IMG/VR virus record: IMGVR_UViG_2531839665_000026
Coordinates: 1-13,781 of that record
Length of the DNA: 13,781 bases
Source of the DNA: a virus
Taxonomy: Duplodnaviria > Heunggongvirae > Uroviricota > Caudoviricetes
Direction: 5' to 3' (one strand)
Shown: piece after piece, positions 295-13,781 of the stretch
Layout: every line of letters starts with the position of its first letter
How positions within the stretch are numbered: position 1 is the stretch's first letter
Position numbers and translations under genes: made by a program
Notes under the pieces: generated by a model
Databases searched by the model: none
What the model saw: only the letters and a program-made list of their open reading frames with translations
What the model was told of the DNA's origin: nothing

Positions 295-448
295 AGTTTT
301 TGCCCCTCTGACTGGTTCTTCAGTCATGATGGCAAAGCGTAACAGGCTGATACAAAGGGCTTTTGTTGTAAGAAAACGGCCAGAACAGGGGGTTAAGGAG
401 AACAGTTTCGCGCGCGGGTAATCTTCCTGTAATTACTCAGGGGGAGCA
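295..448. promoter_or_regulatory. Divergent O/P intergenic region, expected site of the late promoters
   Basis: 154-bp gap between divergent start codons (O at 294, P at 449). This is positional inference only: I could not find a clean TGT-N12-ACA activator dyad of the kind described for P2 late promoters. Confidence 0.3.
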
Positions 449-2200
449 ATGATTCAGGACGCTTTTGTGCGCCAGCGTGCGCGGCAACTTTACTGGCAGG
501 GTTATCCGCCCGCAGAAATATCACGTCTGATGGGAATAAACCCGAACACGATTTATGCGTGGAAAAAACGCGACCAGTGGGATGAAACGCCACCCGTGCA
601 GCGTGTCACGCAGTCCATCGATGCGCGCCTCATCCAGCTCACTGAAAAACAGAATAAAACAGGTGGTGACTTCAAGGAAATAGACCTGCTGACCCGGCAG
701 CTTAAAAAACTGCATGATGGCCAGCCGGATGCGACGGCCACAGGAAAGAAAGGCCGGGCGAAAAAACTCAAAAATCATTTCACGCCGGAACAGATTGCCG
801 CACTGCGGGAAAAAATCATCAGCAGGCTGGAGTGGCATCAGCGGGGCTGGTTTGACTCCCTGACCCTTTGCAGGGAAGCCGGGATACGTAACAGGATGAT
901 CCTGAAATCCCGACAGATTGGGGCGACCTGGTATTTTGCACAGGAAGCACTGCTGATGGCGCTGCGTGACGATGTGGCGCAACCTTACCAGCGTAACCAG
1001 ATTTTTTTGTCTGCGTCGCGTCGTCAGGCGTTCCAGTTTAAAAGCATTATTCAGAAGGCCGCGGCTGAAGTTGATGTGGAGCTGAAAGGGGGCGATAAAA
1101 TCATCCTCTCAAACGGCGCAGAGCTGCATTTTCTCGGCACTTCTGCTGCGTCGGCACAGTCCTATACGGGCAATTTTTATTTTGATGAATTTTTCTGGGT
1201 CAGTCGCTTTGCCGAACTGCGCAAGGTGGCTGGCGCTATGGCAACCCTCAGCGGACTGCGGCGCACCTACTTCTCCACGCCATCCACCGAAACGCACGAG
1301 GCATACGCCTACTGGAACGGCGACCGCTGGAACGAGAAAAAGGCCTCGCATAAACGCCAGCGTTTTTCTGTGGACTGGAAAACGCTGCATAACGGGCTTA
1401 TCTGCCCTGACCGGACGTGGCGGCAAATTGTCACGCTGGAAGATGTGGTTAATCACGGCTGGAAACACACCGATATTGACGAAATCCGTGATGAAAACAC
1501 CGAAGACGAGTTCCTCAATCTCTATATGTGTGAGTTTGTTCGCGAAGGGGAATCGGCATTTAACCTGAATATCCTGATTGGCTGCGGTGTTGACGGATAC
1601 GACGACTGGAAAGACTGGAAACCTTTTGCTCCCCGCCCGATGGGGAATCGTCCGGTATGGATTGGGTATGACGCAAACGGCAGCAGTGGCAACGGGGACA
1701 GCGGCGCTGTGTCCGTGGTGGTTCCTCCGGCTGTTCCTGGTGGCCGTTTTCGAACGGTGGAGACGCGACGCGTTCAGGGGCTGGAGTTTGAAGAACAGGC
1801 CAGAGTCATTGAAGAGTTCACGTGTCGCTACAACGTGGAACACATCGGCATTGATGTGACGGGCGGGAACGGGGAGGCTGTTTATCAGATAGTGAAACGG
1901 TTTTTCCCTGCCGCTATTCCGTACACCTTCACGCTGTCATCCAAACGGTCGCTGGTACTGAAAATGCAGCAAATAATGCGTGCCGGACGGTGGGAATACG
2001 ATCGCGCCGAACGCGAGCTGGTCGCGGCCTTTAACGCCGTGCGTAAGGTGAAAACACCGGGTGGCTTTATCACTTACGAAACGGACCGCGCGAGGGGGAT
2101 CAGCCACGGCGACCTTGCGTGGGCAACCATGCTTGCTGTCATTAACGAACCAATTGGCGGCGAAGGAGAAAAACGAGCGTTTCACGGTTATGGAGTTCTG
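449..2200 (+). CDS. P: Terminase large (ATPase/nuclease) subunit gpP-like; no in-frame stop, frame continues into the portal
   Basis: N-terminal HTH-like segment (YWQGYPPAEISRLMGINPNTIYAWKKRDQWDE), Walker A-like KSRQIGATWYF, Walker B-like FYFDEFFW, and acidic nuclease-domain motifs (WIGYDANGSSGNGDSGAVSVV, HGDLAWATMLAV). The 584 codons before the internal ATG at 2201 compare with about 590 aa for P2 gpP. AGGGGG lies 4 nt before the ATG at 449. Confidence 0.85.
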
Positions 2201-3247
2201 ATGAGCAGAAAAAATAAAAAAGTGCGCATGAGTTCACGCATTGATCTCGCTGATGCGCTCAGGAAAGAATCATCGCTCAGTGCATTCACATTTGATGGTC
2301 CTTATCGCCTGACCGGGCATGACCTGCTGGACAATATGTACTGTGCTGATAACGGGCGGTGGTATGAAACCCCGGTGGACTGGTACGGTCTGGCAAGAGC
2401 CGCCCGGCAAACGTCCTGGCATCAGTCTGCGCTTTACTTTAAGCGCAATGTATTGCTCGGTTGCTACATCCCGCACCCGCTGCTTTCCCGGCAGGATTTC
2501 TCGGCGCTGGCGCTGGACTGGTTTGTGTTCGGTAACGCATTCCTTGAGCTTCGGAGCAATATGCTCGGCGAACCACTTAAATTACGGCACGCACTGGCGA
2601 AATACATGCGACGCGGAAGCGATCTTGAATCATGGTGGTATGTGCAGGATGGCAAGGACGCGTTTCAGTTTCGCCCTGGCAAAGTGTGCCACCTGATGAA
2701 TCCGGACATTAACCAGGAAATTTACGGCATGCCGGAATATCTCGGCGCATTACTCTCGGCCAGCCTGTCTCATTCGGCGGACATGTTCAGAAAACTGTAT
2801 TACGACAATGGATCCCACGCCGGGTGCATCATCTACATCGGTGCAGCGCAGGTAAACCGCGAAAGCATGGACTCCCTGAAAGAAACGCTACAGGGTGCGC
2901 GTGGTGGTGGTGCGTTTAAAAACGTGCTCATTCATGCGCCCAACGGGGGCAAAGAGGGGGTGCAAATTTTGCCGTTCCAGCAGATCACCGCAAAGGATGA
3001 GTTCATGAATGTTAAGGCGGCATCCCGTGATGATGTGCTGGCTGCGCACCGCGTTCCGCCGCAACTGATGGGGGCGATGCCGGGTGAAAAAAGTGCGTTT
3101 GGTGATGTGGAGAAGGCCGCGCGGGTTTACGCAATTAACGAGCTGATGCCCGTCATGGAGGCCATGAAGCATATCAATGACTGGCTTGGCGAAGAGGTGA
3201 TCCGATTTAACCCTTACGCACTGCTGGACACCCAGCCCACATCCTGA
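2201..3247 (+). CDS. Q: Portal protein gpQ-like (348 aa if initiated at the internal ATG at 2201)
   Basis: Follows P on the same strand as in P2. ATG at 2201 is preceded by GGAG at 2192-2195 (5-nt spacer). Length of 348 aa compares with about 344 aa for P2 gpQ. It has a basic N-terminus (MSRKNKKVRMSSR) followed by a conserved-looking core. Stop codon TGA at 3245-3247. Confidence 0.7.
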   Translation: MSRKNKKVRMSSRIDLADALRKESSLSAFTFDGPYRLTGHDLLDNMYCADNGRWYETPVDWYGLARAARQTSWHQSALYFKRNVLLGCYIPHPLLSRQDFSALALDWFVFGNAFLELRSNMLGEPLKLRHALAKYMRRGSDLESWWYVQDGKDAFQFRPGKVCHLMNPDINQEIYGMPEYLGALLSASLSHSADMFRKLYYDNGSHAGCIIYIGAAQVNRESMDSLKETLQGARGGGAFKNVLIHAPNGGKEGVQILPFQQITAKDEFMNVKAASRDDVLAAHRVPPQLMGAMPGEKSAFGDVEKAARVYAINELMPVMEAMKHINDWLGEEVIRFNPYALLDTQPTS

Positions 3248-3272
3248 CGCGCTTCGCTTGTCTGCTGCTTCG

Positions 3273-3297
3273 CCGGGGCATAAAAAATTTATGCCCC
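3273..3297. other. Perfect 11-bp-stem hairpin (CGGGGCATAAA / TTTATGCCCCG, loop AAA) 26 nt after the Q stop
   Basis: Inverted repeat read directly. There is no U tract on either side, so it is not a canonical intrinsic terminator. It could be an RNA-stabilising stem or a protein-binding palindrome in the cos-proximal region. Confidence 0.6.
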
Positions 3298-3575
3298 GAC
3301 TCTCCAGCTCCTGTATCAATCAGATAATTTCACGACGTCTTCCAGCTTATCGCCATCATCGACGGTCAGGCTCTTACGCAATCCCACTGCGCTGACTGCA
3401 TGTTCTCGCCGCCTCAGTGCGATTTTGACGGCCTTATCTGCTACCCCATCAAATCAAAAGTCCTCACGTCTTTTTCATGCTCAGCGTGAGAAATACAGCC
3501 ATTCTGTTGTGTCGCTGCGACATCGTTCAGGGGATGCTATTTACCCCCTGAAACGCGGGCTGTTCCCCCGTCACC

Positions 3576-3601
3576 TGCGCGCAGAAAAAGCGCGTTTTTT
3601 T
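3576..3601 (+). terminator. Intrinsic terminator for the P-Q transcript
   Basis: GC stem CGCGC (3578-3582) / GCGCG (3590-3594), loop AGAAAAA, followed by T7 (3595-3601). Confidence 0.6.
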
Positions 3602-3609
3602 GTGCACGC

Positions 3610-3628
3610 ACGGATCCTTGACGGATCC
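3610..3628. repeat. Direct repeat ACGGATCC x2 separated by 3 bp
   Basis: ACGGATCC at 3610-3617 and 3621-3628, immediately after the T-run of the plus-strand terminator. Confidence 0.5.
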
Positions 3629-3671
3629 AACTGCCACGCGGGCCGGAAGGGCAAAAATTCGTTCAAAAAAA

Positions 3672-3698
3672 TTGTGCAAATTTGTGCACTATTGTGCA
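3672..3698. repeat. Three helically phased direct repeats TTGTGCA at exact 10-bp spacing
   Basis: TTGTGCA at 3672-3678, 3682-3688 and 3692-3698. The middle copy contains the palindrome GTGCAC. They lie in the non-coding cos-expected region between Q and the cargo operon. Confidence 0.6.
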
Positions 3699-3705
3699 TT
3701 GAAAT

Positions 3706-3728
3706 AAACGCCCTGGAAGAGGGCGTTT
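3706..3728 (-). terminator. Stem-loop terminator ending the minus-strand cargo operon (partly bidirectional)
   Basis: AAACGCCCT (3706-3714) / AGGGCGTTT (3720-3728), loop GGAAG, 10 nt past the stop of the 112-aa gene. On the minus-strand RNA the stem is followed by AUUUC. Confidence 0.6.
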
Positions 3729-3738
3729 TGGCTCATTT

Positions 3739-4077
3739 CTATAGCTTTGATGCAGGCTGGGCTAGGTCTCCTTTGATGCCAGTGTTTACAACCTGACAAG
3801 CCTCTTTGAGTACCCAGTCAACAGCGTCTTTCCATGCTCCGGTTTCGGCTGGCGGATTCTCACGCTTTACCAGTTCATAGAATCGTACTGCTCTAACCAG
3901 TCCATCTGACGGTTTTGCCTGTAGTGCAGCCTGAGCTATGCGGTATGCCTGGAGCATACGGGCGTCGTTGATATCCATTCCGAACGGAATTTCTGATGAT
4001 TGTGATTCTGCATCTTCAAGCCTGGCAATTTCTTTACGTAAAAAGTATTTCAACTCTTGTTTTTGTTTTCTGTTCAT
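3739..4077 (-). CDS. Hypothetical protein, 112 aa, last gene of the cargo operon
   Basis: ORF with AGGGAA-type SD 6 nt upstream of ATG at 4077. Charged and probably helical ([26 protein letters not shown]...). No family recognised. AT-rich relative to the phage backbone. Confidence 0.55.
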
Positions 4078-4405
4078 GCGTTTTTCCCTTTTTGTCTGTC
4101 ACTTCTCTCCTGATAATTTCATTGCACAAATCCACGCACTCATTGCAGATGCAAACAGACGGTCCGGCAATCACCTTTGTGACTTCGTACTGAGATTTAT
4201 TGCAGAAGCTGCAATAAATCGTCTCCTCGCCTGAAGTCCATGTTTTGCTGGTTTCGCCAGACATCAGTTGTTTGAGGTCTTTTTCACGACGAAGAACTAT
4301 CTGGCCACATTCAGCTATTTTTTGGATGTTGACATTTTCTTCTTTCGCCAGCGCTTCCATCCGCTCAATCAGTCGCTGCGCTTTTTCTCTGTCAATGTGT
4401 TGCAT
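4034..4405 (-). CDS. Small protein (123 aa) with a ClpX-type C4 zinc-ribbon domain
   Basis: Residues around 62-100, [39 protein letters not shown], align almost position for position with the N-terminal zinc-binding domain of E. coli ClpX as I recall it ([40 protein letters not shown]). GGGGG SD lies 5 nt before ATG at 4405. The last 44 nt overlap the next gene. Confidence 0.65.
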
Positions 4406-4439
4406 TGTGTCCCCCTTGTTTATGTTCCCGGATTAAAGT

Positions 4440-4463
4440 CATCAGGGCGGATGCGCCCTGATG
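4440..4463. other. Intra-operon perfect hairpin between the parR-like and zinc-ribbon genes
   Basis: CATCAGGGCG (4440-4449) / CGCCCTGATG (4454-4463), loop GATG. A third copy of CGCCCTGAT follows at 4484-4492. Confidence 0.5.
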
Positions 4464-4468
4464 TTGTG

Positions 4469-4780
4469 TTATTCGGGAAATAACGCCCTGATATTTCCGG
4501 CCATCCGACTGGTTATCTGTGTGGTTGGTACTGGCTGTGACGCGGGGCGTTCTGTCCTGGTTTGTGTCACTGATAACGCCTCATCGTCAGCCCATGCAGC
4601 CAGTCGGTAAGCCTCTGCCGGATTCATTTTCAGAAGTGCCAGCCCGGCCAGAAAAGCCACACGTTGGCCGCTTTTGCGGGCTTCTGGTGTAAGGCTGTCC
4701 AGCCAGGCGCATGCTTCGCCTTCGTTCTTGACGGCGGCGGGCTTCAGATAGAAACTTATCCGTCTGGTTGGTGTCGTCAT
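4469..4780 (-). CDS. parR: ParR-like small DNA-binding protein (103 aa from internal ATG)
   Basis: Translation from ATG at 4780 (MTTPTRRISFYLKPAAVKNEGEACAWLDSLTPEARKSGQRVAFLAGLALLKMNP...NIRALFPE) parallels plasmid R1 ParR as I recall it (..RTIAFKLNP...CDTLDSIPQGERSRLNRAALTAGLALYRQDP...NILRSLFPKE). GGAG lies 7 nt upstream, inside the end of parM. There is a 4-nt gap after the parM stop. The upstream 45 codons of the ORF-track entry overlap parM and are not used. Confidence 0.65.
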   Translation of the reverse strand: MTTPTRRISFYLKPAAVKNEGEACAWLDSLTPEARKSGQRVAFLAGLALLKMNPAEAYRLAAWADDEALSVTQTRTERPASQPVPTTQITSRMAGNIRALFPE

Positions 4781-4784
4781 TGGT

Positions 4785-5744
4785 TTACTCCTTGTCCATT
4801 GCGTACAGCCCATTAACCAGAGCAAACTGTGGCACCCCGTCCGCGATGAAAGTCGCATTAACTCCGCAGGCTTCGCGGATAGCGGGTGCCGCAATCTCCG
4901 CCCCGCCACCGACAACCATCACCCGCCCGTAACCCGAAAAACCCGCCAGCGCGCGGATCACTCGTTGTTTCAGTGTTTCTTCCTTTTCACGAATAACCGC
5001 CATCAGGCTGTCGTAATGCGCGTCATTGTGGATGTGCTGGCGCAGCCAGGCTTCATCGTGGCGATGTTCGATAATGGTATTGGCGATATGGTGACTGGTA
5101 CGCATACCGTTAGTGGCCATCACCGACAGTACGGCATCGGCTATCAGGGAAACGCCTACGTGTGGATCGCAAAACACCTGGCTGATACCTGCCAGTTGTC
5201 CCTGGACCTTTGCCACATCCAGCGTGGTTCCGCCTAAATCCACAATCAGCAGGGATTCAAACGGACTCATGTCAGCCAGAGCCTTAAAGCCAGCCGGAAT
5301 GGATTCAGGCATAACCCGCACGTTACGGATAGTGAATGCTTCGCCGTTCTGGTACTCCACCGGGCGCATAACGTTCGCTTTTTTGCGGTTGATGTTGGCC
5401 ATGTCCGGCTGTGCGTTTGTGTCGAAATACTCGCTCAGTGGCAGGGTGACAACCACATCCACCTCCTGTGGCGTGATGCCTGATTTGACCAGTGCGTGAT
5501 GAATGGCAATGACATTCACATCGCTGTATTGGTATTGCGTGTCGGTCGTCTGGACAAAGCGATCGCTGACCGGATCAAAACCGTAGCGCACGCCATCAAG
5601 CATGTAGTTCGCGGGCTGCGTGCCACTGAACGGCGCAGACCATTCCGACTTGAAGCTGTTCGGGCTGATGGCGTTGCGGCGTTCGCCGTTCTCAGTCCAT
5701 GCCAGCTTGATGTTGGTGGAGCCGTCGTCGATACAAATTTTCAT
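4785..5744 (-). CDS. parM: ParM/StbA-like actin-fold segregation ATPase (319 aa)
   Basis: Alignable along its whole length to plasmid R1 ParM (StbA) as I recall it. Shared blocks include IDDGSTNIKL, YSDVNVIAIHHAL, VMPESIPAG, DLGGTTLD and VVGGGAE. Length of 319 aa compares with about 320 aa for R1 ParM. Confidence 0.8.
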   Translation of the reverse strand: MKICIDDGSTNIKLAWTENGERRNAISPNSFKSEWSAPFSGTQPANYMLDGVRYGFDPVSDRFVQTTDTQYQYSDVNVIAIHHALVKSGITPQEVDVVVTLPLSEYFDTNAQPDMANINRKKANVMRPVEYQNGEAFTIRNVRVMPESIPAGFKALADMSPFESLLIVDLGGTTLDVAKVQGQLAGISQVFCDPHVGVSLIADAVLSVMATNGMRTSHHIANTIIEHRHDEAWLRQHIHNDAHYDSLMAVIREKEETLKQRVIRALAGFSGYGRVMVVGGGAEIAAPAIREACGVNATFIADGVPQFALVNGLYAMDKE

Positions 5745-5776
5745 GTCGCTTTTCCTTATGTTGATTAATTAATCGT

Positions 5777-5811
5777 TTACGGGATTCTGAAATCCCGTTT
5801 TTGCCTGTTTT
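5777..5811. repeat. Repeat R1: 35-bp hairpin-containing unit in the A/parM intergenic space (candidate parC-like site or promoter)
   Basis: TTACGGGATTCTGAAATCCCGTTTTTGCCTGTTTT. The internal stem ACGGGAT/ATCCCGT is followed by a T-rich tail on the plus strand. Confidence 0.6.
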
Positions 5812-5820
5812 GTGCGCGCT

Positions 5821-8643
5821 TCATATATCGCTGCGCGTTTTTTGCTCATTTACGGGATTCGTGAGTCCCGTTTCTGTCTGTTTTTTGTTTCCACTGGTCA
5901 GGCCACCCTGCAGCAGGTCTGCTTTGCGGTTGGCGCGTTCAGTGGTTTCACTGATTCTCTGTGCGTGCTCTGCGTCACGGATGGCGCGCAGCATGTCAGA
6001 AAGCACGGTAACGGGGGTTTTCATGGTGTTCTGGTCCTGCTGAAGTGTGGATGCCAGACGTGCGGCGGCTTCGGGGTCTGATGCCCCCAGTTGTTCCAGA
6101 TAGCTGGCGACCGGGTTATGGCGGATCTCTGTGCTGCTTACGCCGTGATTACGGCTCAGGCGCTGCCAGAGCTGCGTGATTCGGCTGTCCGGGCGGGTAT
6201 CCGGTTTGCGTACAATTTCAAATCCCTGCGGTGCAATGATGCTGCCGTCAACGTACAGGCTGCCGCCCCGTAGCAGGTGCTGCATCTGCTGTTCACCGAT
6301 ATGCAGGCCGAGAGATTCGGCAGACTCCCGCCATTCTTTAGCGAGTAATTCGTGGTTATCAGGCAAAGGCCGCTGCTGTTTGCGGCTCTGTGTCCAGCTC
6401 TGCATTTCATCACTGCTGTTTTTTGCCTGTTTGTCACGAAGCGAACGCATCAGCGCCCGGCGTTCGTGCCGTTTCAGTGAGCGCATCCATTCGTTCACTT
6501 CAACGCCATCAGGGAGCTGCGGCCACGGTGCTGGCTGTTCTTCCGGCTGTTCTGTCCCGTTGTTGTTCGTTTCCTGTACACGGGGACAGTTATTGCCACG
6601 AGTCCAAGGGGCGGCAGGGCCGCCCTGAAGGTCAAAACCATTTTCGCGGGCGCTGTCTTCCGCTTCCGGTTTACGTCTTACCAGCTTCCAGTTATCCGGA
6701 TGTGTGCACACACGGGAAGACTCCCCGATGAGTGGTGACCAGATCCCGTAAATCTGTACGCTCTGTTCGCCGTAATCGTTCAGCTCATCTGCGAGGTCGT
6801 AGGCGGTGCGAATCAGGTAGTCTTTGCGTGGAACAAGTACGCCGCCCTGTTTCTCAATGTAGGAGGCAAAACATCCGGCATCAGCGGCAGCGAGCACTGC
6901 ATCCATTGCGTCATCCTTCAGCCGTTGCGGGCCTTCCGGGTTGCGTGCCATCTGGCTGGCAAGGCGACGCAGTTCACGCCACACCTGACGGGAGGGGATG
7001 CCAAAGAACTGGAACTGGCGGACCCGGTGAAGGCGCGCCCAGCCAATGGCGCGTTCCACGCTCTCGGTCATTGATTTTCCGGTTTCGTGGTCAACGCGTG
7101 GTTTGCCTGTTTTCGGGTCGATGCCATCCACGGCGCGGCTGTCCAGGTTCTTTCCGATGTAGGTGGCGATGTAGCTGGTTGGCGTGCCTTTTGAGCCGTC
7201 GACGTACTCCGCTTTAAAACGCGGAGTTATGTCATCGCCCAGCTCGTGGCGGTCTTCCTGAATGGCAATATCGCAGACGTGGGACACGATGGTTTCAATC
7301 TCGTCCGGATGTGCAAAGACCATCATATGCCAGTGCACGGTGCCGTCATGGTGAGGCTCCACCGTGCGGATGCCATACCAGCGCAGGCCGTCGCGGTTCA
7401 GTTTCTTGCGGACCGCCGCAAAAAACGTGTTAACCAGGTAATCGCTGGAGTCGCGCATGGTGGCCCCGTTCCATTTGGGATTCGGATGACCGTTCTCTGT
7501 TGTAGCGTGGTATTTTGACGGGCAGGTGACAGTCAGAAACACCGCTCTGTCGCCACGGGCTTCGGCCAGAAGTTCCAGTCCCTTCATGGTGGCCATCATT
7601 TCTGCCTTACGGTGAACCGGGTTACTTACTCCCGCGTAATACACTGTCTCGAGATCAATCGTGAACCCGTCTTCATTTTCCAGCATGAAACTTTTCAGGA
7701 AATCGCGTGTTTTCTCGCGCTGTGCGCGAAACTCGCTTAACGCGTCCTGGCTCAGATAGGGTGATGTTTTTCTGGAAACCAGACAGGCGGCGCGGAGTTG
7801 TTCTTCTCTCCACTCGCAACGTAACAGCCACAATTTGCGTTTCCACCAGTCCGCACAGGTCAGGCGAAGGATTGCACCCGGCAGCAGTTCTGTGTCCGGT
7901 TCGTTCCTCCGGTCTTTGTCTGTTGTCAGTGCGTCATAATGTGGAGGCATGGTGTGCAGATGTAACGCCATGCGAGCCAGCAGCTGATACGCCTTCAGCG
8001 TTATATCCATGGTCAGCTCGCCATCGGTCGCGCCAAAGCCATCGCAGAGTTTTTCGAAGGTGCTGCTGAACATTGCCGCCGTCATGACGGCCAGTGTCTG
8101 TATCTGGTGTTTGTTGAGCTGCGGCAGGTAAAGTAAATCGTCCAGACGTTCACGTCCGGCAAGGGAGCGATAACCCGGAGTCAGCCAGCGTCCGTCAGTG
8201 CGGGCCAGACGTTCCAATATTTTGCGCAGGGTTCCGCGTGCATAGCGTTCCGCCTGCCAGCTCTTTTTGCCTTTCCGGCGATCGGCTTCCTGCTTTTTGC
8301 GCAGGAAGGAGAGGTGGCGAATAAGCGGATCGCGCAGATAGGACGGCAGCAGGCGCAGCGAGGCCATGGCTTCATCCACCGCACCGCGTGCCTGTTTTCT
8401 GGCGTCTCTGGCCAGTGTGATGGTTTTGTCCTGCTTTTCCTGTGCGTCCAGGCTTTTATTAATCAGGTTGCCCAGCGGCGTTGCGGAGAACGCCGCATCA
8501 GCCATTTCCTGGCGTCGCTCGTTCTCTACCCGGTAAGCATCCAGCCAGGAGGAAAGCGCGGATTCAGGTGCGGGGATCCCCGTACCTTCACGCCCTACTG
8601 CGTGGCGCGGTTGTTGCCAGTCCCTGATGTACTCTGTCGTCAT
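5821..8643 (-). CDS. A: Rolling-circle replication initiator gpA-like (HUH endonuclease), 940 aa
   Basis: Long minus-strand ORF with an HUH-type motif (TVHWHMMVF) and paired tyrosines (TSYIATYIGK), as in the P2 gene A protein. It sits downstream of cox and the small early genes, as in P2. It is longer than P2 gpA (about 761 aa) because of a C-terminal extension. Confidence 0.85.
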   Translation of the reverse strand: MTTEYIRDWQQPRHAVGREGTGIPAPESALSSWLDAYRVENERRQEMADAAFSATPLGNLINKSLDAQEKQDKTITLARDARKQARGAVDEAMASLRLLPSYLRDPLIRHLSFLRKKQEADRRKGKKSWQAERYARGTLRKILERLARTDGRWLTPGYRSLAGRERLDDLLYLPQLNKHQIQTLAVMTAAMFSSTFEKLCDGFGATDGELTMDITLKAYQLLARMALHLHTMPPHYDALTTDKDRRNEPDTELLPGAILRLTCADWWKRKLWLLRCEWREEQLRAACLVSRKTSPYLSQDALSEFRAQREKTRDFLKSFMLENEDGFTIDLETVYYAGVSNPVHRKAEMMATMKGLELLAEARGDRAVFLTVTCPSKYHATTENGHPNPKWNGATMRDSSDYLVNTFFAAVRKKLNRDGLRWYGIRTVEPHHDGTVHWHMMVFAHPDEIETIVSHVCDIAIQEDRHELGDDITPRFKAEYVDGSKGTPTSYIATYIGKNLDSRAVDGIDPKTGKPRVDHETGKSMTESVERAIGWARLHRVRQFQFFGIPSRQVWRELRRLASQMARNPEGPQRLKDDAMDAVLAAADAGCFASYIEKQGGVLVPRKDYLIRTAYDLADELNDYGEQSVQIYGIWSPLIGESSRVCTHPDNWKLVRRKPEAEDSARENGFDLQGGPAAPWTRGNNCPRVQETNNNGTEQPEEQPAPWPQLPDGVEVNEWMRSLKRHERRALMRSLRDKQAKNSSDEMQSWTQSRKQQRPLPDNHELLAKEWRESAESLGLHIGEQQMQHLLRGGSLYVDGSIIAPQGFEIVRKPDTRPDSRITQLWQRLSRNHGVSSTEIRHNPVASYLEQLGASDPEAAARLASTLQQDQNTMKTPVTVLSDMLRAIRDAEHAQRISETTERANRKADLLQGGLTSGNKKQTETGLTNPVNEQKTRSDI
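5849..5883. repeat. Repeat R2: second copy of the 35-bp unit, lying inside the last codons of gene A
   Basis: TTACGGGATTCGTGAGTCCCGTTTCTGTCTGTTTT. 29 of 35 positions match R1, with most differences in the hairpin loop. It sits 72 bp to the right of R1. Confidence 0.6.
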
Positions 8644-8649
8644 ACTGAT

Positions 8650-9015
8650 TTACTTCGTCATGCCATTCAGGGTGTCACGGCAAACGGCAGCCAGACGCTG
8701 AATTTCCAGCACGGTGTCTTCTGTGTCGGCATGGCGATGTGTGATGCGGATGCTGTCGGCAATCACATCGACGATTGCAGAGGATGGGCGCTGGTAAATG
8801 CCAATAACGGACGGGGTGCCACCTTCAATGCGGTAAAGCCTGTAATTTCCCTCGTGGCTGTCAATCATGTAGCGACCATCAATAACAATCTTTCCGTCAG
8901 CGAGCTGCGGTACAGGCAGGGATTTCAGGTACATGTCATAACGATCACGCACGCGAGCGGCAAGATCACGCTCTGTGTTGAGCAGGTATTCAAGAAAGTC
9001 GTTGGCGAGAATCAT
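8650..9015 (-). CDS. Hypothetical early protein, 121 aa
   Basis: ORF with AAGAGGA SD 8 nt before ATG at 9015. Its stop is 7 nt before the A start. No family recognised. Confidence 0.6.
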   Translation of the reverse strand: MILANDFLEYLLNTERDLAARVRDRYDMYLKSLPVPQLADGKIVIDGRYMIDSHEGNYRLYRIEGGTPSVIGIYQRPSSAIVDVIADSIRITHRHADTEDTVLEIQRLAAVCRDTLNGMTK

Positions 9016-9087
9016 TGCGGCAATCCTCTTGTTACAGATGTGCGAAGGCCTCCCGCCGCAAGGTGCAGGAAAGGCCCGGAACAGGAA

Positions 9088-9318
9088 TTAATGGAGTTTG
9101 TTTTGCTGCTGGATGAGCTGTTGAAGCTCGTGCAGATCATCCGCCAGATAACTGAAAACAGAGGCGGAATAAATGTTTGATAGTGCGTGGCTGCGCTCAT
9201 GCAGCATATTGATGTGCATGATTTGCGCGACGCGTGATGCGCGGAAAAGTCTACGGTTGATTTCAGTCTGGATGTGACGACGCGCAGCGTATGCGCGCTG
9301 TTGTTTGCGGTTTGCCAT
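9088..9318 (-). CDS. Hypothetical early protein, 76 aa
   Basis: ORF with AGAGG SD 7 nt before ATG at 9318. Basic N-terminus (MANRKQQRAYAARRHIQTEINRR). Confidence 0.55.
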   Translation of the reverse strand: MANRKQQRAYAARRHIQTEINRRLFRASRVAQIMHINMLHERSHALSNIYSASVFSYLADDLHELQQLIQQQNKLH

Positions 9319-9361
9319 GGTGTGGCCTCTTTGCTCGGTGATAGAAATAGCTCACCATCCA

Positions 9362-9404
9362 GAGTTGAGAATCTCGGGGTGGCGAGACGTACAGGGTTCT
9401 CAAC
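9362..9404. repeat. Inverted repeat GTTGAGAA ... TTCTCAAC (25-nt loop), with a third direct copy of GTTGAGAATC at 9540-9549
   Basis: GTTGAGAATC at 9364-9373, its inverse TTCTCAAC at 9397-9404, and GTTGAGAATC again at 9540-9549. Both direct copies are preceded by CTTTGCTC. Confidence 0.55.
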
Positions 9405-9495
9405 ACCGGAGAGCAAAGAATCCGGCCCGACCGAAGTCGGCCCCGTACGCCCCGCCATAATTCTGACGCGAAAAAGACGTGGCAATACAGTACGC

Positions 9496-9518
9496 ACAAA
9501 AAAACCGCTGGCGCGGTT
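9496..9518 (-). terminator. Intrinsic terminator on the minus strand, downstream of the 67/88/99-aa gene block
   Basis: Stem AACCGC (9503-9508) / GCGGTT (9513-9518), loop TGGC. The plus-strand A7 run (9498-9504) becomes the U tract of a minus-strand transcript. Confidence 0.6.
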
Positions 9519-9590
9519 ATGCGCTTTGCTCTGTATCGGGTTGAGAATCCCGGCACCCGTTTTATGAGGTGCAGCGGAAATGTAACCTGA

Positions 9591-9619
9591 CCGATTGCGG
9601 CATGGCAAGCGGTTTTTTT
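9591..9619 (+). terminator. Intrinsic terminator on the plus strand, ending an unannotated plus-strand transcript
   Basis: CCGATTGC (9591-9598) / GCAAGCGG (9605-9612) with one A-G mismatch, loop GGCATG, followed by T7 (9613-9619). Confidence 0.5.
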
Positions 9620-9640
9620 GTGTGTGCATGTTCTGGTTTC

Positions 9641-9940
9641 TTACTGGTTCAGAAAAAAATCAAAAACCTTGTCAATGCGTTGCAGCAGCTCTTGCTGTAT
9701 TGCTTCCGGCGTTTCCGGTTCGCCGGGTGCCTCCAACGTCGCGCAGAAATCAGCGATTTCATGATGGAGTGTCAGGCGAATGGCAGGAGCCGTGGTTCTG
9801 GCGTGCTCCAGCTCATCCAGCAGTGCCAGCACAGCAGACGGCGAGAGCATTGCGCGAAACGCCAGTAATTTTTGAGGCGTTGCCATTCGTTGCAGGGCAA
9901 ATGCCAGTTCGCGTAGCTTCTGGTGGTTGATGGTGCTCAT
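9641..9940 (-). CDS. Hypothetical protein, 99 aa
   Basis: ORF whose ATG overlaps the upstream stop as ATGA (9937-9940). No family recognised. Confidence 0.55.
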   Translation of the reverse strand: MSTINHQKLRELAFALQRMATPQKLLAFRAMLSPSAVLALLDELEHARTTAPAIRLTLHHEIADFCATLEAPGEPETPEAIQQELLQRIDKVFDFFLNQ

Positions 9941-10203
9941 GTTCTGGCTTCCTTCAGTAGCTGGTTAAACATGTGAGTAAGTGGATTGCTACACCCGAAC
10001 GGCATCGGGTTTACGTGGTAAGAAGCCTGGCCTCCAGTTTTGCGAGCGCGACCACCTGTGCTGCGGTTTGTTCTGATGACTAAGCCGCCGCGCCAAAGTT
10101 GGCGTAACTCAGCATTAATGGCTGTGGTTGGAGTATTCAGTGCTGCGGCGATCTCTCCGCCGCTACAACCCGGATGAGTAGCGATGTAGTCCAGAATGGT
10201 CAT
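9937..10203 (-). CDS. Putative winged-helix DNA-binding protein, 88 aa
   Basis: ATGA overlap with the upstream gene (10200-10203). The N-terminal LDYIATHPGCSGGEIAAALNTPTTAINAELRQL is typical of a wHTH recognition segment. This is a weak fold-level inference. Confidence 0.5.
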   Translation of the reverse strand: MTILDYIATHPGCSGGEIAAALNTPTTAINAELRQLWRGGLVIRTNRSTGGRARKTGGQASYHVNPMPFGCSNPLTHMFNQLLKEART

Positions 10204-10403
10204 CTGCGTGGCTCCTGTACCTGTCGGATAAGATTCACCCGCGCCACGTTGGTGGCGCAGAAGTAAGTGCCGTCAGTGAGGTAGATGTGGTGTGCATCCT
10301 TTTCCGAACGATGTTTGTCGATAGTGGTAATCAGGCGTTCGTCGACCTCGTATTCGCGCCCTCTGGAGGTAAAGCGAACGACGGGAAAATGCTTAATTGC
10401 CAT
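10200..10403 (-). CDS. Hypothetical protein, 67 aa
   Basis: Strong AAGGAGG SD 5 nt before ATG at 10403. First gene of a three-gene translationally coupled block. Confidence 0.55.
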   Translation of the reverse strand: MAIKHFPVVRFTSRGREYEVDERLITTIDKHRSEKDAHHIYLTDGTYFCATNVARVNLIRQVQEPRR

Positions 10404-10489
10404 TACGCCTCCTTGGCGTGTGCGAATACCTCCGCGAATGCGGATTGTTTTTACATTTTCTTATTTAATCTGTGGTTTTATTTGCTCTG

Positions 10490-10603
10490 TTATTCGCCAG
10501 TGAAAAAGCGTTCAATCTTTTTTATTGAATGAATAATTCGCATAATCCCAATAGCGCAGGCCACCGAAATAATCAGAACAAGCCATGAGATAAATATACT
10601 CAT
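10490..10603 (-). CDS. Small hydrophobic peptide, 37 aa (below the ORF-track cutoff)
   Basis: ATG at 10601-10603 overlaps the stop of the upstream 80-aa gene as ATGA. Translation MSIFISWLVLIISVACAIGIMRIIHSIKKIERFFTGE has one predicted transmembrane helix and a basic tail. Confidence 0.45.
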   Translation of the reverse strand: MSIFISWLVLIISVACAIGIMRIIHSIKKIERFFTGE

Positions 10604-10842
10604 GCGATATTCCCCAGCTCATACGGTTCAATATGTTCCCCGCATTCTGCGGCACAGATCAGCTCGGAAAGTTCGTTAAGTGCATCCAGATCATCAGCGT
10701 AAAAAGCCACGTCATACAGACTTCGGATTGCTCTGGTCAATGAGTCACGGGCCGCACGTTCAGCATGAGCGCCTGATGCACTTAAGCGAAAATAAAAGCG
10801 CTCAAGTGCTTTGTTAATGAGAGTTTTATATTCTTTGCCCAT
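10600..10842 (-). CDS. Hypothetical protein, 80 aa
   Basis: ORF starting 11 nt after the stop of the upstream gene. No family recognised. Confidence 0.5.
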   Translation of the reverse strand: MGKEYKTLINKALERFYFRLSASGAHAERAARDSLTRAIRSLYDVAFYADDLDALNELSELICAAECGEHIEPYELGNIA

Positions 10843-10853
10843 CGCAACGCCCT

Positions 10854-11141
10854 TTAATCTGCTTTCTGAATTTCAGTTTCTGAATCCATACAGATAATTT
10901 CGATATAGGGTTTATCGCCATTAACCTGACGAGCCTTTTCAGCTTCGCTAATGATTTCGCGTACGGTCTGGTACGGAAGTTCCACGATCAGTCGCGTGCC
11001 GTTCAGATAAACGTAAGTGGCTTCGGCGGCTCCGTTTTTCCCCGCCGGAGCCACTCCATCAATAGCGGATGCGCGTAATAACAGTTCACCGCGAAAATCA
11101 ATAAAGCGGATAAATACACCTTGAGTATGGTCTTTAGTCAT
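10854..11141 (-). CDS. Hypothetical protein, 95 aa (internal start of the 115-codon ORF-track entry)
   Basis: ATG at 11141 is preceded by AGGTG (5-nt spacer) and avoids overlap with the upstream gene. The longer start at 11201 would overlap that gene by 50 nt. Confidence 0.5.
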   Translation of the reverse strand: MTKDHTQGVFIRFIDFRGELLLRASAIDGVAPAGKNGAAEATYVYLNGTRLIVELPYQTVREIISEAEKARQVNGDKPYIEIICMDSETEIQKAD

Positions 11142-11151
11142 AAAGCACCTG

Positions 11152-11493
11152 TTATAAATCAGCCTGTTTAATAAAACTCTGTCCACGCAGCAGACGATCA
11201 ACCGTGCGAAGCGCTTCGTATAATGTGAAATCCTGCCCGAACTGATTGTCGCCGCTGCTCAGAGCAAAAATGCGGTTTCCGGTAAACGGATTGCGCGGGC
11301 ATTTGTGGACCACGATTCCAGCTTTCTCAATCAGCCAGGCATGCTCGCCGATTTGTTTTACTGGGTAGCCATCCGGCGTTGCGTGTGTATCACTCAGGCT
11401 GTAGCGGATGTTGCTGCGTGATGCACTGGTAGCAAAACGGTTAGCGTGGCGTTCTGCACCATTGCGAAAGCGTGAATTACGTTGCTGTTTCAT
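11152..11493 (-). CDS. Hypothetical early protein, 113 aa
   Basis: ORF in the early operon between cox and A. It may correspond positionally to one of the P2 early genes (B region), but I cannot confirm this by sequence. Confidence 0.5.
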   Translation of the reverse strand: MKQQRNSRFRNGAERHANRFATSASRSNIRYSLSDTHATPDGYPVKQIGEHAWLIEKAGIVVHKCPRNPFTGNRIFALSSGDNQFGQDFTLYEALRTVDRLLRGQSFIKQADL

Positions 11494-11494
11494 G

Positions 11495-11602
11495 TTAAAG
11501 ACTCTGTACAGATTTAATTATTCCGGCATAGAGGCCGAACTCAAAATATTTGCGATTAAATCGCATCGCATTGTTTTCACGTTTTGCGGACTGCTGGTTC
11601 AT
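11495..11602 (-). CDS. Small ORF, 35 aa (below the ORF-track cutoff)
   Basis: GGAGG lies 8 nt before ATG at 11602. Its stop TAA is 1 nt before the ATG of the 113-aa gene. Translation MNQQSAKRENNAMRFNRKYFEFGLYAGIIKSVQSL. Confidence 0.4.
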   Translation of the reverse strand: MNQQSAKRENNAMRFNRKYFEFGLYAGIIKSVQSL

Positions 11603-11653
11603 TTTCGTTTGCCTCCGCACATGAGAATTGCGCCGCTTAAGAGGTAACCGAAG

Positions 11654-11676
11654 TTAATTGATAGTATTACAATTAA
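11654..11676. repeat. Inverted repeat TTAATTG-N9-CAATTAA in an intergenic gap of the early operon
   Basis: Read directly. It lies between the 68-aa membrane protein gene and the 35-aa ORF. It may be an operator or an internal promoter element. Confidence 0.4.
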
Positions 11677-11745
11677 CATAAGGTCCAATTTGTCCATGCC
11701 ACACATAATTACCCTCATTGCAGTAGTTGTGGGTTGTCAGGTTTC

Positions 11746-11952
11746 TCACCCGATAAACCAGATAACAAACGCTATCAACATCGCCCCAATAGCTGCCGGG
11801 AAAAGTCCTTTGGTATAAGCGGCGATATATTCAATGCTGAGTTCAATAAAGCGTTCTTTATGTCCCGTTAACTTGCGAAACAAATAGATCTCTATTACGC
11901 CTATCTCAATAAAAACAAGGGTCAGAATGGCGCTGATGATATGGCTGGTCAT
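11746..11952 (-). CDS. Small membrane protein, 68 aa, two predicted transmembrane helices
   Basis: Starts 6 nt after the cox stop. Two hydrophobic stretches (IISAILTLVFIEIGVIEIYLF and AAIGAMLIAFVIWFIG). Confidence 0.5.
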   Translation of the reverse strand: MTSHIISAILTLVFIEIGVIEIYLFRKLTGHKERFIELSIEYIAAYTKGLFPAAIGAMLIAFVIWFIG

Positions 11953-11958
11953 TTATGA

Positions 11959-12246
11959 CTAAAGTCCCAGCCACAACAACCATGCGTCGCGGCGTTCTTT
12001 CGGTTGCTCAAAAAACGCTTTGCGCATGCCTTCGTTAAATGCTGGCAGATATACCCAGTTTTCTGATGCACGCGTCTTTACTGAACCTGGTTTCACAAAG
12101 TCAATTGTTGGTAGCTTTGCTGCGTCAATCATGGTTCTGACTGTGGATTCCTTGCGGCCGATCATCTTGGCGAATAGTTGATATGGCACCGCTTCAAGTG
12201 GATATGGTGCTACCTGAATGAACCCCCCAAGCTCTGATTCGCTCAT
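11959..12246 (-). CDS. cox: Cox-like excisionase / early-operon regulator (95 aa)
   Basis: Matches P2 Cox as I recall it (VPYQLFAKMIGRKESTVRTMIDAAKLPTIDF...ENWVYLPAFNEGMRKAFFEQPKERRDAWLLWLGL against ...IPYQEFAKLIGKSTGAVRRMIDKGKLPVIDM...EYWVYLPAWNNGLKLAYESRPKEIRDGWLMWLGL). AGGGAGA SD. Divergent from C. Confidence 0.85.
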   Translation of the reverse strand: MSESELGGFIQVAPYPLEAVPYQLFAKMIGRKESTVRTMIDAAKLPTIDFVKPGSVKTRASENWVYLPAFNEGMRKAFFEQPKERRDAWLLWLGL

Positions 12247-12320
12247 TGTGGTAATCTCCCTAATTCGTTCGAATGGCTCAAAATGGCTTATATCGGCTTA
12301 TTTGAGTGTTTTTATGTTTG

Positions 12321-12366
12321 TGCCCGATGTGGCATGTTGTGATGGAGGACATGCCCGATATGGCAT
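12321..12366. promoter_or_regulatory. Putative immunity operator: two 15-bp direct repeats in the cox/C switch region
   Basis: TGCCCGATGTGGCAT (12321-12335) and TGCCCGATATGGCAT (12352-12366), 31 bp apart. The second overlaps the likely C start. A consensus TTGACA on the minus strand at 12370-12375 abuts the second repeat. P2 C is known to bind a pair of direct repeats at the early promoter. Confidence 0.5.
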
Positions 12367-12680
12367 CTTTGTCAAGCATGGGTGAAAAATTTCGCCTGAT
12401 TCGTGAAGCAGAAGGTATGACCCGCCAGGAGTTTGCGGATTGTGTTGGGCTGCCTTATGGGACGGTAACTAACTATGAGGTGAGGGGGAAGCAAGTAACA
12501 GAGGGTGCCTTACTTAAGGTTACGAAACACCCTAAATTTAAGAAGTATGCTTATTGGTTATCAACAGATGAAACGATGCCGGAGGTCGGGCAAATTTCTC
12601 CGGCTCTCTCTCTTGATGGTTCCTGCAATTCGGAGGGAGATCGCGTTTCAACCGAAACAATCCAAAAATTATCCCGCTGA
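12360..12680 (+). CDS. C: C repressor-like immunity repressor (106 aa from ATG at 12360)
   Basis: MGEKFRLIREAEGMTRQEFADCVGLPYGTVTNYE...KFKKYAYWLSTDETMPEVGQISPALS parallels P2 C as I recall it (ISEKIVLMRKSEYLSRQQLADLTGVPYGTLSYYE...QFTKYTLWFMTNQIAPESGQIAPALA). The start is ambiguous between 12342, 12360 and 12378; the ORF-track start at 12306 is unlikely. Confidence 0.8.
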   Translation: MASLSSMGEKFRLIREAEGMTRQEFADCVGLPYGTVTNYEVRGKQVTEGALLKVTKHPKFKKYAYWLSTDETMPEVGQISPALSLDGSCNSEGDRVSTETIQKLSR

Positions 12681-12776
12681 GGCCAGAAAACTGGTTAGAC
12701 CTGCTTTTTGTCTGGTCTGATTATTGCTGGAAAGAGGCTGGAGAAATTGTAGAGCGGTTCATTGGAGGGCTTCGTA

Positions 12777-13781
12777 ATGTCGATTAAGAAGCTCGAAGAT
12801 GGTCGTTATTTGCTGGACATCAGGCCGAACGGACGCAAGGGAAAGCGCGTGCGTAAGGTATTTGACAAAAAATCGGTAGCGGTGGCCACTGAACGCTACA
12901 TCATGGCGAACGCTGAAAAGCGGGAATATATACAGGGCTACCGTGATCGTCGAACGCTAAATGATTTGCTTGAGTTGTGGTGGATGTATCACGGCCAGCA
13001 CAGGCGTAAGGCGGAAGAAGACCGAAAACAACTGCGCAACATAATCAATGAGCTTGGCGCTGATATGCAGGCTGTGGATCTTGATAAGCTGAAAATTATC
13101 GCGTGGCGTTCTCAAAAGATAGCTGATGGATTGAAACCGTCATCTGCTAACAGGTACATGAATCGGTTATCCGGAATGTTTACCGTGCTGAAAAAAATAG
13201 GTCTTTGGGATGCAGAACATCCAGTAAGGGGAATTTCTATTCTTTATGTATCTCCACGAGAAATGGCGTTCCTGTCACAGAAGGAAGTGGCGCTATTGCT
13301 CGATACACTGGAGGGCGACTACTGGCGTGTTGCGCTTTTGTGTTTAAGCACAGGGGCGCGCTGGAGTGAAGCTTGTAAGCTTCGTGGTGAACAGATAGTT
13401 CATAACCGTGTAACGTTTCTTGAAACCAAAAATGGCCGGAAGAGAACAGTGCCAATTTCGCAGGCAGTTTGTGAGGCGATCAAAACCAGAGAAACAGGCG
13501 GCTTGTTTGAGGTGAAGTACCGGGAATTCTGCCTGGCGCTGAAAAGAGTTAAGCCCGATTTACCAAAAGGCCAGGCTGCACATGTGCTGCGGCATACGTT
13601 CGCCAGCCATTTTGTGATGAACGGAGGAAACATTATTGCGCTTCAGAAGATTCTTGGTCACGCAACCATTCAGCAAACAATGGCATATGCGCATTTTGCA
13701 CCGGATTACCTGCAGGATGCGGTGGCCCTTAATCCGCTGAAAGGTGGCGTAAGTGTCCACGCAGTGTCCACGGGGGATTAA
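12777..13781 (+). CDS. int: P2-type tyrosine integrase (334 aa)
   Basis: From ATG at 12777 (GGAGGG SD with 7-nt spacer): MSIKKLEDGRYLLDIRPNGRKGKRVRKVFDKKS..., with the catalytic region ...LRHTFASHF...LGHATIQQTMAYAHFAPDYLQDAVALNP. This closely parallels P2 Int as I recall it. Stop codon at 13779-13781, the window edge. Confidence 0.9.
   Translation: MSIKKLEDGRYLLDIRPNGRKGKRVRKVFDKKSVAVATERYIMANAEKREYIQGYRDRRTLNDLLELWWMYHGQHRRKAEEDRKQLRNIINELGADMQAVDLDKLKIIAWRSQKIADGLKPSSANRYMNRLSGMFTVLKKIGLWDAEHPVRGISILYVSPREMAFLSQKEVALLLDTLEGDYWRVALLCLSTGARWSEACKLRGEQIVHNRVTFLETKNGRKRTVPISQAVCEAIKTRETGGLFEVKYREFCLALKRVKPDLPKGQAAHVLRHTFASHFVMNGGNIIALQKILGHATIQQTMAYAHFAPDYLQDAVALNPLKGGVSVHAVSTGD

Follow-up and report, generated by a model that had tools for sequence, protein, structure and literature searches.

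A probable antisense-RNA immunity module of the P1/P4 type inside the early operon of a P2-like prophage

Immunity systems built on small RNAs are already known from the immI region of phages P1 and P7, from the immunity region of P4 and from the isrK locus of Gifsy-1. The immI region of P1 is laid out as a1 b1, c4, a2 b2, icd and ant, and the immunity region of P4 as PLE, seqA, the CI RNA with seqB, then seqC, epsilon and, further on, alpha; C4 and CI RNAs are processed by RNase P, and the P4 epsilon protein inactivates the C repressor of P2. The c4 RNA blocks the expression of ant at its ribosome-binding site, which explains the heteroimmunity of P1 and P7 (PMC12197685). In Gifsy-1, the terminator of IsrK is partly read through, and the short IsrK works in trans, on transcripts that have passed the terminator, to activate translation of the downstream anti-repressor (PMC4825925). 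The Gifsy-1 RNA STnc1160, encoded downstream of IsrK, has been likened to P4 CI, which was summarised in the same study as a termination factor acting via seqA and seqC (PMC4825925). IsrK and this stable downstream RNA are highly transcribed in lysogens (PMC7067206). The present study concerns positions 9319-9640 of a viral sequence of 13,781 nt (IMG/VR record IMGVR_UViG_2531839665_000026, positions 1 to 13,781; hereafter the window), an interval lying between a 99-aa and a 76-aa gene of a P2-like prophage. This interval very probably constitutes a minus-strand antisense-RNA immunity module of the P1/P4 type, situated inside the early operon of the prophage. An initial annotation of the window had described it as a structured non-coding island with terminators on both strands and a repeated motif, and the sequence features that it pointed to were all found at or within 1 nt of the positions it gave.

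Two RNAs encoded in tandem on the minus strand are members of the isrK and C4 families, and both exceed the gathering scores of the curated Rfam models, i.e., 50 bits for isrK (RF01394) and 45 bits for C4 (RF01695). Together with the terminator of the first RNA and the putative promoter in front of it, they are as follows.

9619..9579, minus strand: putative promoter PisrK, with an A7 tract at 9619..9613, a -35 hexamer TTGCCA at 9608..9603, an 18-nt spacer and a -10 hexamer TACATT at 9584..9579
9572..9498, minus strand: IsrK-like RNA (RF01394, 62.8 bits, E 1e-11, model positions 1-77 of 77)
9518..9496, minus strand: intrinsic terminator of the IsrK-like RNA, reported by the terminator scan and part of the isrK model
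9462..9375, minus strand: C4-type antisense RNA (RF01695, 78.5 bits, E 2e-14, model positions 1-87 of 87)

The IsrK-like RNA has a pair of hairpins at its 5' end, then the a1 box in a single-stranded stretch, and finally the intrinsic terminator, whose stem (9518..9503, AACCGC/GCGGUU, loop GCCA) is followed by a U7 tract ending at 9496. This is the minus-strand terminator of the initial annotation, which the scan recovered. The C4 RNA is composed of a 17-bp closing stem, a UUCG hairpin, a hairpin carrying the a' loop and a single-stranded b' segment. The bulged hairpin at 9424-9442 that had been singled out earlier does exist, and turned out to be the UUCG-capped internal helix of C4 and not an element of its own. 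Similarly, the small regulatory RNA that had been suspected is encoded here, as IsrK-like and C4 RNAs on the minus strand, which is that of the operon, instead of on the plus strand.

A tandem of isrK and then C4 on a single strand was also found in P88, in the Citrobacter phage Shae_phiSM (Xuanwuvirus), in the lambdoid ASU11, in two Stx-type phages and in P4, as well as in eight further enterobacterial loci. In P4, the C4 match corresponds to the CI RNA and the isrK or c4-a1b1 match to the seqA region. In a structure alignment of 13 loci (A2), the helices of isrK and C4 were paired in 99.6% of the cells, and 18 pairs had changed on both sides, a number that none of 500 shuffles attained, while slid controls gave at most two such pairs. 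Helices 4-6, which belong to C4, account for 27 pairs that are 99-100% paired, 13 of them changed on both sides, and the terminator stem (helix 3) covaries in the lambdoid and P4 relatives. The covariation analysis that the initial annotation had called for supports the helices of both RNAs. In the locus of the Stx2 phage (L007), a further RNA structure, an ALIL pseudoknot (RF01497, 120.9 bits; 537-653, plus strand), precedes the module and is unrelated to it.

The repeated motif of the interval belongs to these RNAs. GTTGAGAAYC (the GTTGAGAATC repeat) occurs three times in the whole window, each time inside the interval (plus strand at 9364-9373 and 9540-9549, inverted at 9395-9404), against a chance expectation of 0.06, and three copies were reached in none of 200 shuffles. 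Its companion CTTTGCTC also occurs exactly three times (plus strand at 9329-9336 and 9524-9531, inverted at 9411-9418; 0.61 copies expected). The two direct copies and the inverted copy of the former motif had been recorded before; the inverted copy of CTTTGCTC at 9411-9418 had been missed. Read on the minus strand, the six sites form two sets of complementary boxes.

9540..9549, minus strand: b1 box GAUUCUCAAC, within the second hairpin loop of the IsrK-like RNA, complementary to b' of C4
9524..9531, minus strand: a1 box GAGCAAAG, single-stranded in the IsrK-like RNA, complementary to the a' loop of C4
9411..9418, minus strand: a' box CUUUGCUC, exposed in a C4 loop of 12 nt
9396..9404, minus strand: b' box GUUGAGAAC, in an unpaired segment of C4
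9364..9373, minus strand: b2 target box GAUUCUCAAC, upstream of the 76-aa gene, in its leader
9336..9329, minus strand: a2 target box GAGCAAAG, running into the Shine-Dalgarno sequence GAGG at 9329..9326

The a' and b' boxes of C4 match both the upstream sites (a1, b1) and the downstream sites (a2, b2) perfectly over 8-9 nt, and this holds for all four sites. In the stretch GAGCAAAGAGGCCACACCAUG, a2 continues without a gap into GAGG, the Shine-Dalgarno sequence of the 76-aa gene, 8 nt ahead of the ATG at 9318; a2 abuts GAGG in all 13 loci of the alignment. Across these loci the scaffold is nearly constant and the boxes differ, all three copies within a locus changing together, as the following sets illustrate.

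P88: UUUCCAC / GUGGAAA and AACUACAG / CUGUAGUU
Citrobacter phage: UUGGAAC / GUUCCAA and AACCAAAG / CUUUGGUU
P4: GUGAGAA / UUCUCAC and UUCACAGG / CCUGUGAA

The longest Watson-Crick match was 8.4-9.5 nt for cognate a boxes and 7.2-7.3 nt for cognate b boxes, compared with about 4 nt for non-cognate combinations, and the cognate matches of a C4 loop to its own a1, a2, b1 and b2 sites span 7-11 nt. The summed duplex energy amounted to -32.7 kcal/mol for cognate and -22.9 +/- 3.7 kcal/mol for non-cognate pairs, with -18 kcal/mol for the a':a2 duplex. Three-way complementarity, co-variation of the copies and the position of a2 on the ribosome-binding site are direct observations on these loci.

When IMG/VR was scanned with the invariant C4 scaffold, leaving the boxes free, at least 120 loci of the P88 type and at least 118 of the P4/Stx type were obtained. 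The P88-type scaffold carried at least 21 combinations of a' and b', drawn from at least 15 a' loops and at least seven b' boxes; among the loci listed, every combination was accompanied by matching a1, a2, b1 and b2 sites, and the box type of the window accounted for 21 of the 120 listed matches. At least 58 combinations were present on the P4/Stx-type scaffold. The two boxes can be exchanged separately: the window and locus L010 share b and not a, and P88 and the Escherichia albertii locus share a and not b. Hypervariability of the boxes is a general property of the C4 family, with a and b reassorting independently. Cross-talk between P88-type and P4/Stx-type modules was considered and is unsupported, as no combination of a' and b' and no a core was common to the two types among the matches listed (120 versus 118). 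The isrK-C4 spacer also contains a half-site, TACTGTAT, that resembles half of a LexA box, the second half of which is absent.

By these comparisons the repeats are RNA-RNA pairing boxes that serve antisense recognition, and not protein-binding sites, because the inverted copy inside the structured RNA changes in step with the direct copies, which a protein site would not need. The initial annotation had proposed otherwise, namely that the repeats could bind a replication or regulatory protein and that a small RNA on the plus strand ends at a terminator at 9591-9619. This proposal we find scarcely credible. Direct and inverted copies co-vary as complementary boxes in at least 21 plus at least 58 combinations on a fixed scaffold, and both Rfam matches lie on the minus strand, with nothing credible on the plus strand. 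The hairpin on which the proposal was based does exist.

9591..9619, plus strand: hairpin at 9591-9612 followed by T7 at 9613-9619, folding at -11.4 kcal/mol with an internal mismatch

This hairpin was not reported by the terminator scan. Its 3' arm and T7 tract are the complement of the A-tract and -35 hexamer of the minus-strand promoter-like site, and its 5' arm is the variable promoter spacer. The stem is not conserved: in several variants the pairing is weakened or lost, or survives as G-U on the plus strand, the last of which could be taken in favour of a plus-strand RNA. No promoter, gene or RNA family supporting a plus-strand transcript was found in the promoter scan, the open reading frame (ORF) list or Rfam. 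A weak plus-strand site read by eye (CTGACG-17-TACAGT) was rejected, being absent from the scan and having lost its -35 hexamer in P88. The hairpin is most likely an incidental by-product of the promoter sequence on the opposite strand, since it is built from the -35 hexamer, the A-tract and a variable spacer and is accompanied by no plus-strand promoter, gene or RNA family. There is a minor residual possibility that it is meaningful, as two unrelated types of spacer each still fold a small hairpin next to the T-run.

The minus-strand site itself is the putative promoter of the module. The A7 tract is UP-element-like, and the predicted start near 9572 falls on the first nucleotide of the isrK match. 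The pair of hexamers is placed equally in each of the lineages compared (P88-type, lambdoid and P4), the -10 hexamer ending 7-8 nt before the isrK 5' end. Moreover, in about 100 epsilon-linked loci the -35 and -10 hexamers and the A-tract (about -47..-41) are nearly invariant and the spacer is variable. The earlier suggestion that a terminator inside the operon implies regulated read-through or a separate promoter would agree with such a site just upstream of the IsrK-like RNA, in which case both would apply. A second site, TTGCCA(9485)-17-AATTAT(9457), was considered as a promoter of C4 and rejected, because the start would fall inside the C4 stem and the -35 hexamer is not conserved in relatives.

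Downstream of the boxes, the 76-aa protein matched Pfam PF25738 Derepression with 32 bits, compared with a cutoff of 27, and P4 epsilon in BLASTP with an E value of 5e-9, 51 aa being aligned at 33% identity; in RefSeq it bears the name 'derepression protein'. By these matches it is a homologue of P4 epsilon, and it is presumed to be an anti-repressor. In its own frame the variation shows an excess at third codon positions (37/35/60). Protein-family searches found no Icd or Ant domains in the 76-aa and 121-aa proteins, and the 121-aa protein showed no homology to P4 orf151. In lambdoid relatives, the same pair of RNAs is placed before an anti-repressor of the Rha type.

A second frame had to be considered here, for a 205-aa ORF (9629..9012, minus strand) spans the whole interval and runs on through the 76-aa gene. 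The earlier statement that the interval holds no convincing ORF thus needs to be qualified: an ORF does span it, but one that carries no coding signal. It would be possible to regard the interval as protein-coding, the 205-aa ORF encoding a protein of the Ash or 'transcriptional regulator' kind. The frame is open in 94 of 96 related loci; it gives a weak match to Pfam PF10554 Phage_ASH and matches to PHROG 'transcriptional regulator' families, and coding sequences (CDS) have been annotated here in some records. We nevertheless consider a coding function very improbable. The Phage_ASH score of 19.2 bits is below the cutoff of 26, and no Shine-Dalgarno sequence was found ahead of the ATG at 9629. 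Common variants of the interval show no codon periodicity in the 205-aa frame (33/29/30), in contrast to the frame of the overlapped 76-aa gene, and the positions that vary are the RNA boxes, which change complementarily. Openness of the frame was rejected as evidence of coding after this periodicity test; it is largely inherited, because the loci are closely related and their scaffold is almost invariant. PF10554 also strongly matches other frames that overlie isrK/C4 DNA. We conclude that the 205-aa ORF is not a gene. With the Rfam matches and the covariation, the absence of periodicity agrees with the earlier description of the interval as non-coding, structured and regulatory.

The behaviour of PF10554 (the 'Ash protein family') deserves a remark of its own. 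It scores 59.7 bits on the obsolete 'cI' CDS of P4 (L008 8171-8584, minus strand). The 'antirepressor' CDS of ASU11 (L005 2134-2793, minus strand) is matched in its N-terminal extension, with 67.8 bits; in this CDS, which is mis-started, the actual Rha domain starts past the RNA boxes. Several PHROG 'transcriptional regulator' families likewise match translated isrK/C4 DNA. PF10554 may therefore largely model translated non-coding RNA.

Among the described systems, P4 is the closest in layout. Both share the same order of elements on one strand, i.e., a promoter-like site, isrK/seqA, C4/CI, boxes on the ribosome-binding site of the first ORF, a gene of the epsilon family, small ORFs and a replication gene; the same Rfam models recognise both RNAs, and the 76-aa protein is homologous to epsilon. 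However, the module of the window resides in a complete P2-like phage, which has a C/Cox switch of its own and an initiator of the gpA type, whereas P4 is a satellite with an alpha primase. The operon of the P4 cassette ends in the alpha primase-helicase, and that of the window contains a replication gene A with a Phage_GPA domain (E 4e-128) instead. The box sequences are not the same, the gap between C4 and epsilon is 57 nt in the window compared with about 245 nt in P4, and the isrK-C4 spacer is 35 nt compared with 107 nt.

With P1/P7 immI, known to us from the literature, the locus has in common a C4 antisense RNA made from the same transcript as its target (RF01695 match; PMC12197685). In both cases two boxes are repeated up- and downstream, with the downstream pair at a ribosome-binding site, and the box sequence, which sets heteroimmunity in P1/P7, would do so in the window; in both the cargo is an anti-repressor, presumed as such in the window. 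The IsrK-like RNA of the window is the equivalent of the P1 a1b1 element and of P4 seqA. The gene downstream is different, the window having a protein of the P4-epsilon family and not Icd or Ant. In Gifsy-1, an IsrK-type RNA is transcribed from a promoter of its own up to a leaky terminator, beyond which come a processed stable RNA and the gene for an anti-repressor (PMC4825925). The window passes the isrK model; by this analogy, its IsrK-like RNA would act as an activator. The cargo of Gifsy-1 is, in contrast, an anti-repressor of the Rha/Ant type reached via the translated orf45, and the first ORF past the boxes in the window is the epsilon-like gene. The kind of system is therefore already known, and both of its RNAs are recognised by curated models. 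What appears to be new is the setting in a complete P2-like phage, in the cox-to-A operon and with cargo of the P4-epsilon type, together with the absence of annotation and the extent of box diversity. No description of the module was found in the literature for P2-like phages, Xuanwuvirus or CP-933T, in a survey that covered the older P1 and P4 literature thinly, and a paper on anti-sRNAs of EHEC makes no mention of isrK or C4.

Taking these points together, we propose the following course of events. Transcripts would start near 9572 from the promoter-like site (TTGCCA-18-TACATT with its A7 tract), and most of them would end at 9518..9496, giving an IsrK-like RNA of about 77 nt that displays b1 and a1. 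Transcripts that read through would carry C4 (9462..9375), the leader with b2 and a2, and the 76-aa gene. The a' box in its hairpin loop and the single-stranded b' box of C4 would pair with a2 and b2, covering the edge of the Shine-Dalgarno sequence, so that the anti-repressor-like gene downstream is most likely kept from being translated by C4. The untranslated RNA could then be terminated early, as in P1 and P4, and the expression of the 121-aa gene and of gene A would be lowered. The IsrK-like RNA, bearing the same boxes, may titrate C4 as a decoy or activator, for which IsrK of Gifsy-1 is the precedent, and in this way tip the switch. The 76-aa epsilon homologue probably inactivates a C repressor of the P2 type. 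The whole module could act as a second, RNA-based and sequence-specific lock on derepression of the prophage. The use of the promoter, the processing of the RNAs, the block on translation, the polar effect on gene A, the role of the decoy and the target assigned to the 76-aa protein are inferred from the anatomy of the locus and from the systems above.

The same RNAs could possibly work in another way, closer to P4, in which pairing of C4 with the boxes primarily causes premature termination of transcription and mainly silences gene A in the lysogen, while control over translation of the 76-aa gene comes second. The gene order does parallel P4, where the CI RNA is upstream of epsilon and of the replication gene; gene A is downstream in the same orientation, and P4 CI has been described as a termination factor via seqA and seqC (PMC4825925). 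We hold this for possible but rather unlikely as the primary mode. Only weak consensus matches to terminators were present between C4 and the ATG of the 76-aa gene, and a2 is placed directly on the ribosome-binding site in every locus, as translational control predicts. Moreover, a natural deletion variant (L003, E. coli AVS0533) has kept gene A without the module. In this variant isrK, C4, the epsilon-like gene and the 99-aa gene are absent, and positions 2863-3008 show the 121-aa gene followed by a pseudogene remnant of an 'ash family protein' and then by the MarR gene, with gene A annotated as frameshifted. Because a variant without the RNAs retains gene A, the module behaves as an accessory cassette. 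The termination mode and the translational mode are not mutually exclusive.

A further feature that has to be accommodated is a long inverted repeat, which is placed as follows.

9492-9512 and 9605-9625: the two arms of a 21-nt inverted repeat, bracketing the IsrK element and complementary at 19 of 21 positions

Outside the A/T runs, 12 of 14 positions are complementary. The repeat is invariant in the epsilon-linked loci and absent from the lambdoid and P4 versions of the module. In the minimum free energy (MFE) fold of a transcript covering 9640..9490, i.e., one entering from the upstream early genes, the repeat forms the closing helix and replaces the terminator hairpin (-51.4 kcal/mol). One could suppose from this that transcripts from the early promoter meet another fate than those from the promoter of the module, the long-range helix either sequestering the 3' arm of the terminator and its U-tract, which would lead to read-through, or creating a site for RNase III. 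The degree of complementarity, the MFE fold and the restriction to the epsilon-linked loci are in favour of this, but it seems improbable to us. Both arms are invariant and consequently provide no covariation, and an antiterminator of this form is kinetically unfavourable, as the local hairpin is the first to form and its U-tract is engaged in the RNA-DNA hybrid at the time of termination. The -35 hexamer and the UP-like A-tract also account for the upstream arm.

We prefer the antisense-RNA immunity module with translational control as described above, and several points weigh against it. The 21-nt repeat around the IsrK-like RNA is left unexplained by the model. The Rfam model for c4-a1b1 (RF03163, gathering score 46.7) scored 15.9 bits at 9585..9533 and did not reach its threshold; the overlapping isrK model captures the element, and P4 itself is below the c4-a1b1 threshold with 44.1 bits. 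The promoter scan reported two sites in the region where 1.2 were expected, which is not significant alone. Pairing of a' with a2 reaches no further than the 5' edge of the Shine-Dalgarno sequence. The function given to the 76-aa protein depends on the 33% identity to P4 epsilon over 51 residues, and the retention of gene A in the deletion variant implies that the module is not essential for expression of A. Finally, promoter use, termination efficiency, processing and repression at this locus are inferred.

From its gene content and domain matches, the window is a segment of a P2-like prophage of the P88 / Xuanwuvirus type. The genes around the module and elsewhere in the window that were used for this placement or mentioned above are the following.

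449-3247, plus strand: terminase and portal genes (domain matches)
4785-5744, minus strand: ParM-type gene (domain match)
5821-8643, minus strand: replication gene A (Pfam Phage_GPA)
8650-9015, minus strand: 121-aa ORF (ORF list)
9088-9318, minus strand: 76-aa ORF, with its ATG at 9318..9316 (ORF list, Pfam)
9641-9940, minus strand: 99-aa Ead/Ea22-like ORF (ORF list, protein families)
9937-10203, minus strand: MarR-type helix-turn-helix (HTH) gene (ORF list, protein families)

Over the interval, the nearest phages are P88 and other members of Xuanwuvirus, with 85-89% identity. Of 5426 complete E. coli genomes, 1298 contain a region of 1.55 kb around the interval, strains of O157:H7 and ST131 among them, by which the module is taken to be widespread in the P88-type P2-like prophages of E. 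coli. RefSeq has no features annotated across 9319-9640; elsewhere the interval has been given protein annotations that read 'hypothetical', 'Ash family' or 'transcriptional regulator'. A scan of species-representative genomes for the epsilon-like gene yielded three loci, and the diversity was taken instead from E. coli genomes and IMG/VR.

Three observations on the window and its relatives may be added. The ParM-type plasmid-segregation gene (4785-5744, minus strand) adjoins gene A, at the position where P2 has accessory genes, and is annotated in P88 too. The terminase and portal functions of the window are contained in a single ORF of 932 aa (449-3247, plus strand), with the domains of the terminase large subunit at aa 1-575 and the portal domain at aa 585-929. 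In related phages the two are annotated as separate genes, and 300 of their bases align to 301 bases of the window; a 1-nt indel near 2195-2205 appears to have fused them, and it may either have arisen in sequencing or reflect a real frameshift. Locus L010 (NZ_JBQPOM010000071.1) comes from a contig of a Firmicute assembly, 'Vagococcus sp. WN89Y', and contains a P88-like prophage of the E. coli type with the isrK/C4 module and an epsilon-like gene that is 93% identical. This is probably due to contamination or a mislabelled assembly.

For the biology of these phages, the module would explain how a terminator can sit inside an early operon, and it would place an epsilon-like anti-repressor under a control that can be tested, in phages of a family not known, as far as we could find, to carry one governed by C4. 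It would also tie the regulation of P2-like phages of the helper type to that of the P4 satellites, and the diversity of boxes on one invariant scaffold would offer a natural set of orthogonal RNA-RNA specificities. P88-type P2-like prophages occur in about a quarter of complete E. coli genomes. Speculatively, and with low confidence, the module might be a second, RNA-only layer of immunity in these prophages, in which two independently reassorting boxes create dozens of mutually insulated specificities and gate both the epsilon-type anti-repressor and gene A. Box identity, and not the C repressor alone, might then decide on derepression among co-resident or superinfecting P2-like phages, and such modules might be the evolutionary source of the immunity and epsilon cassette of P4.

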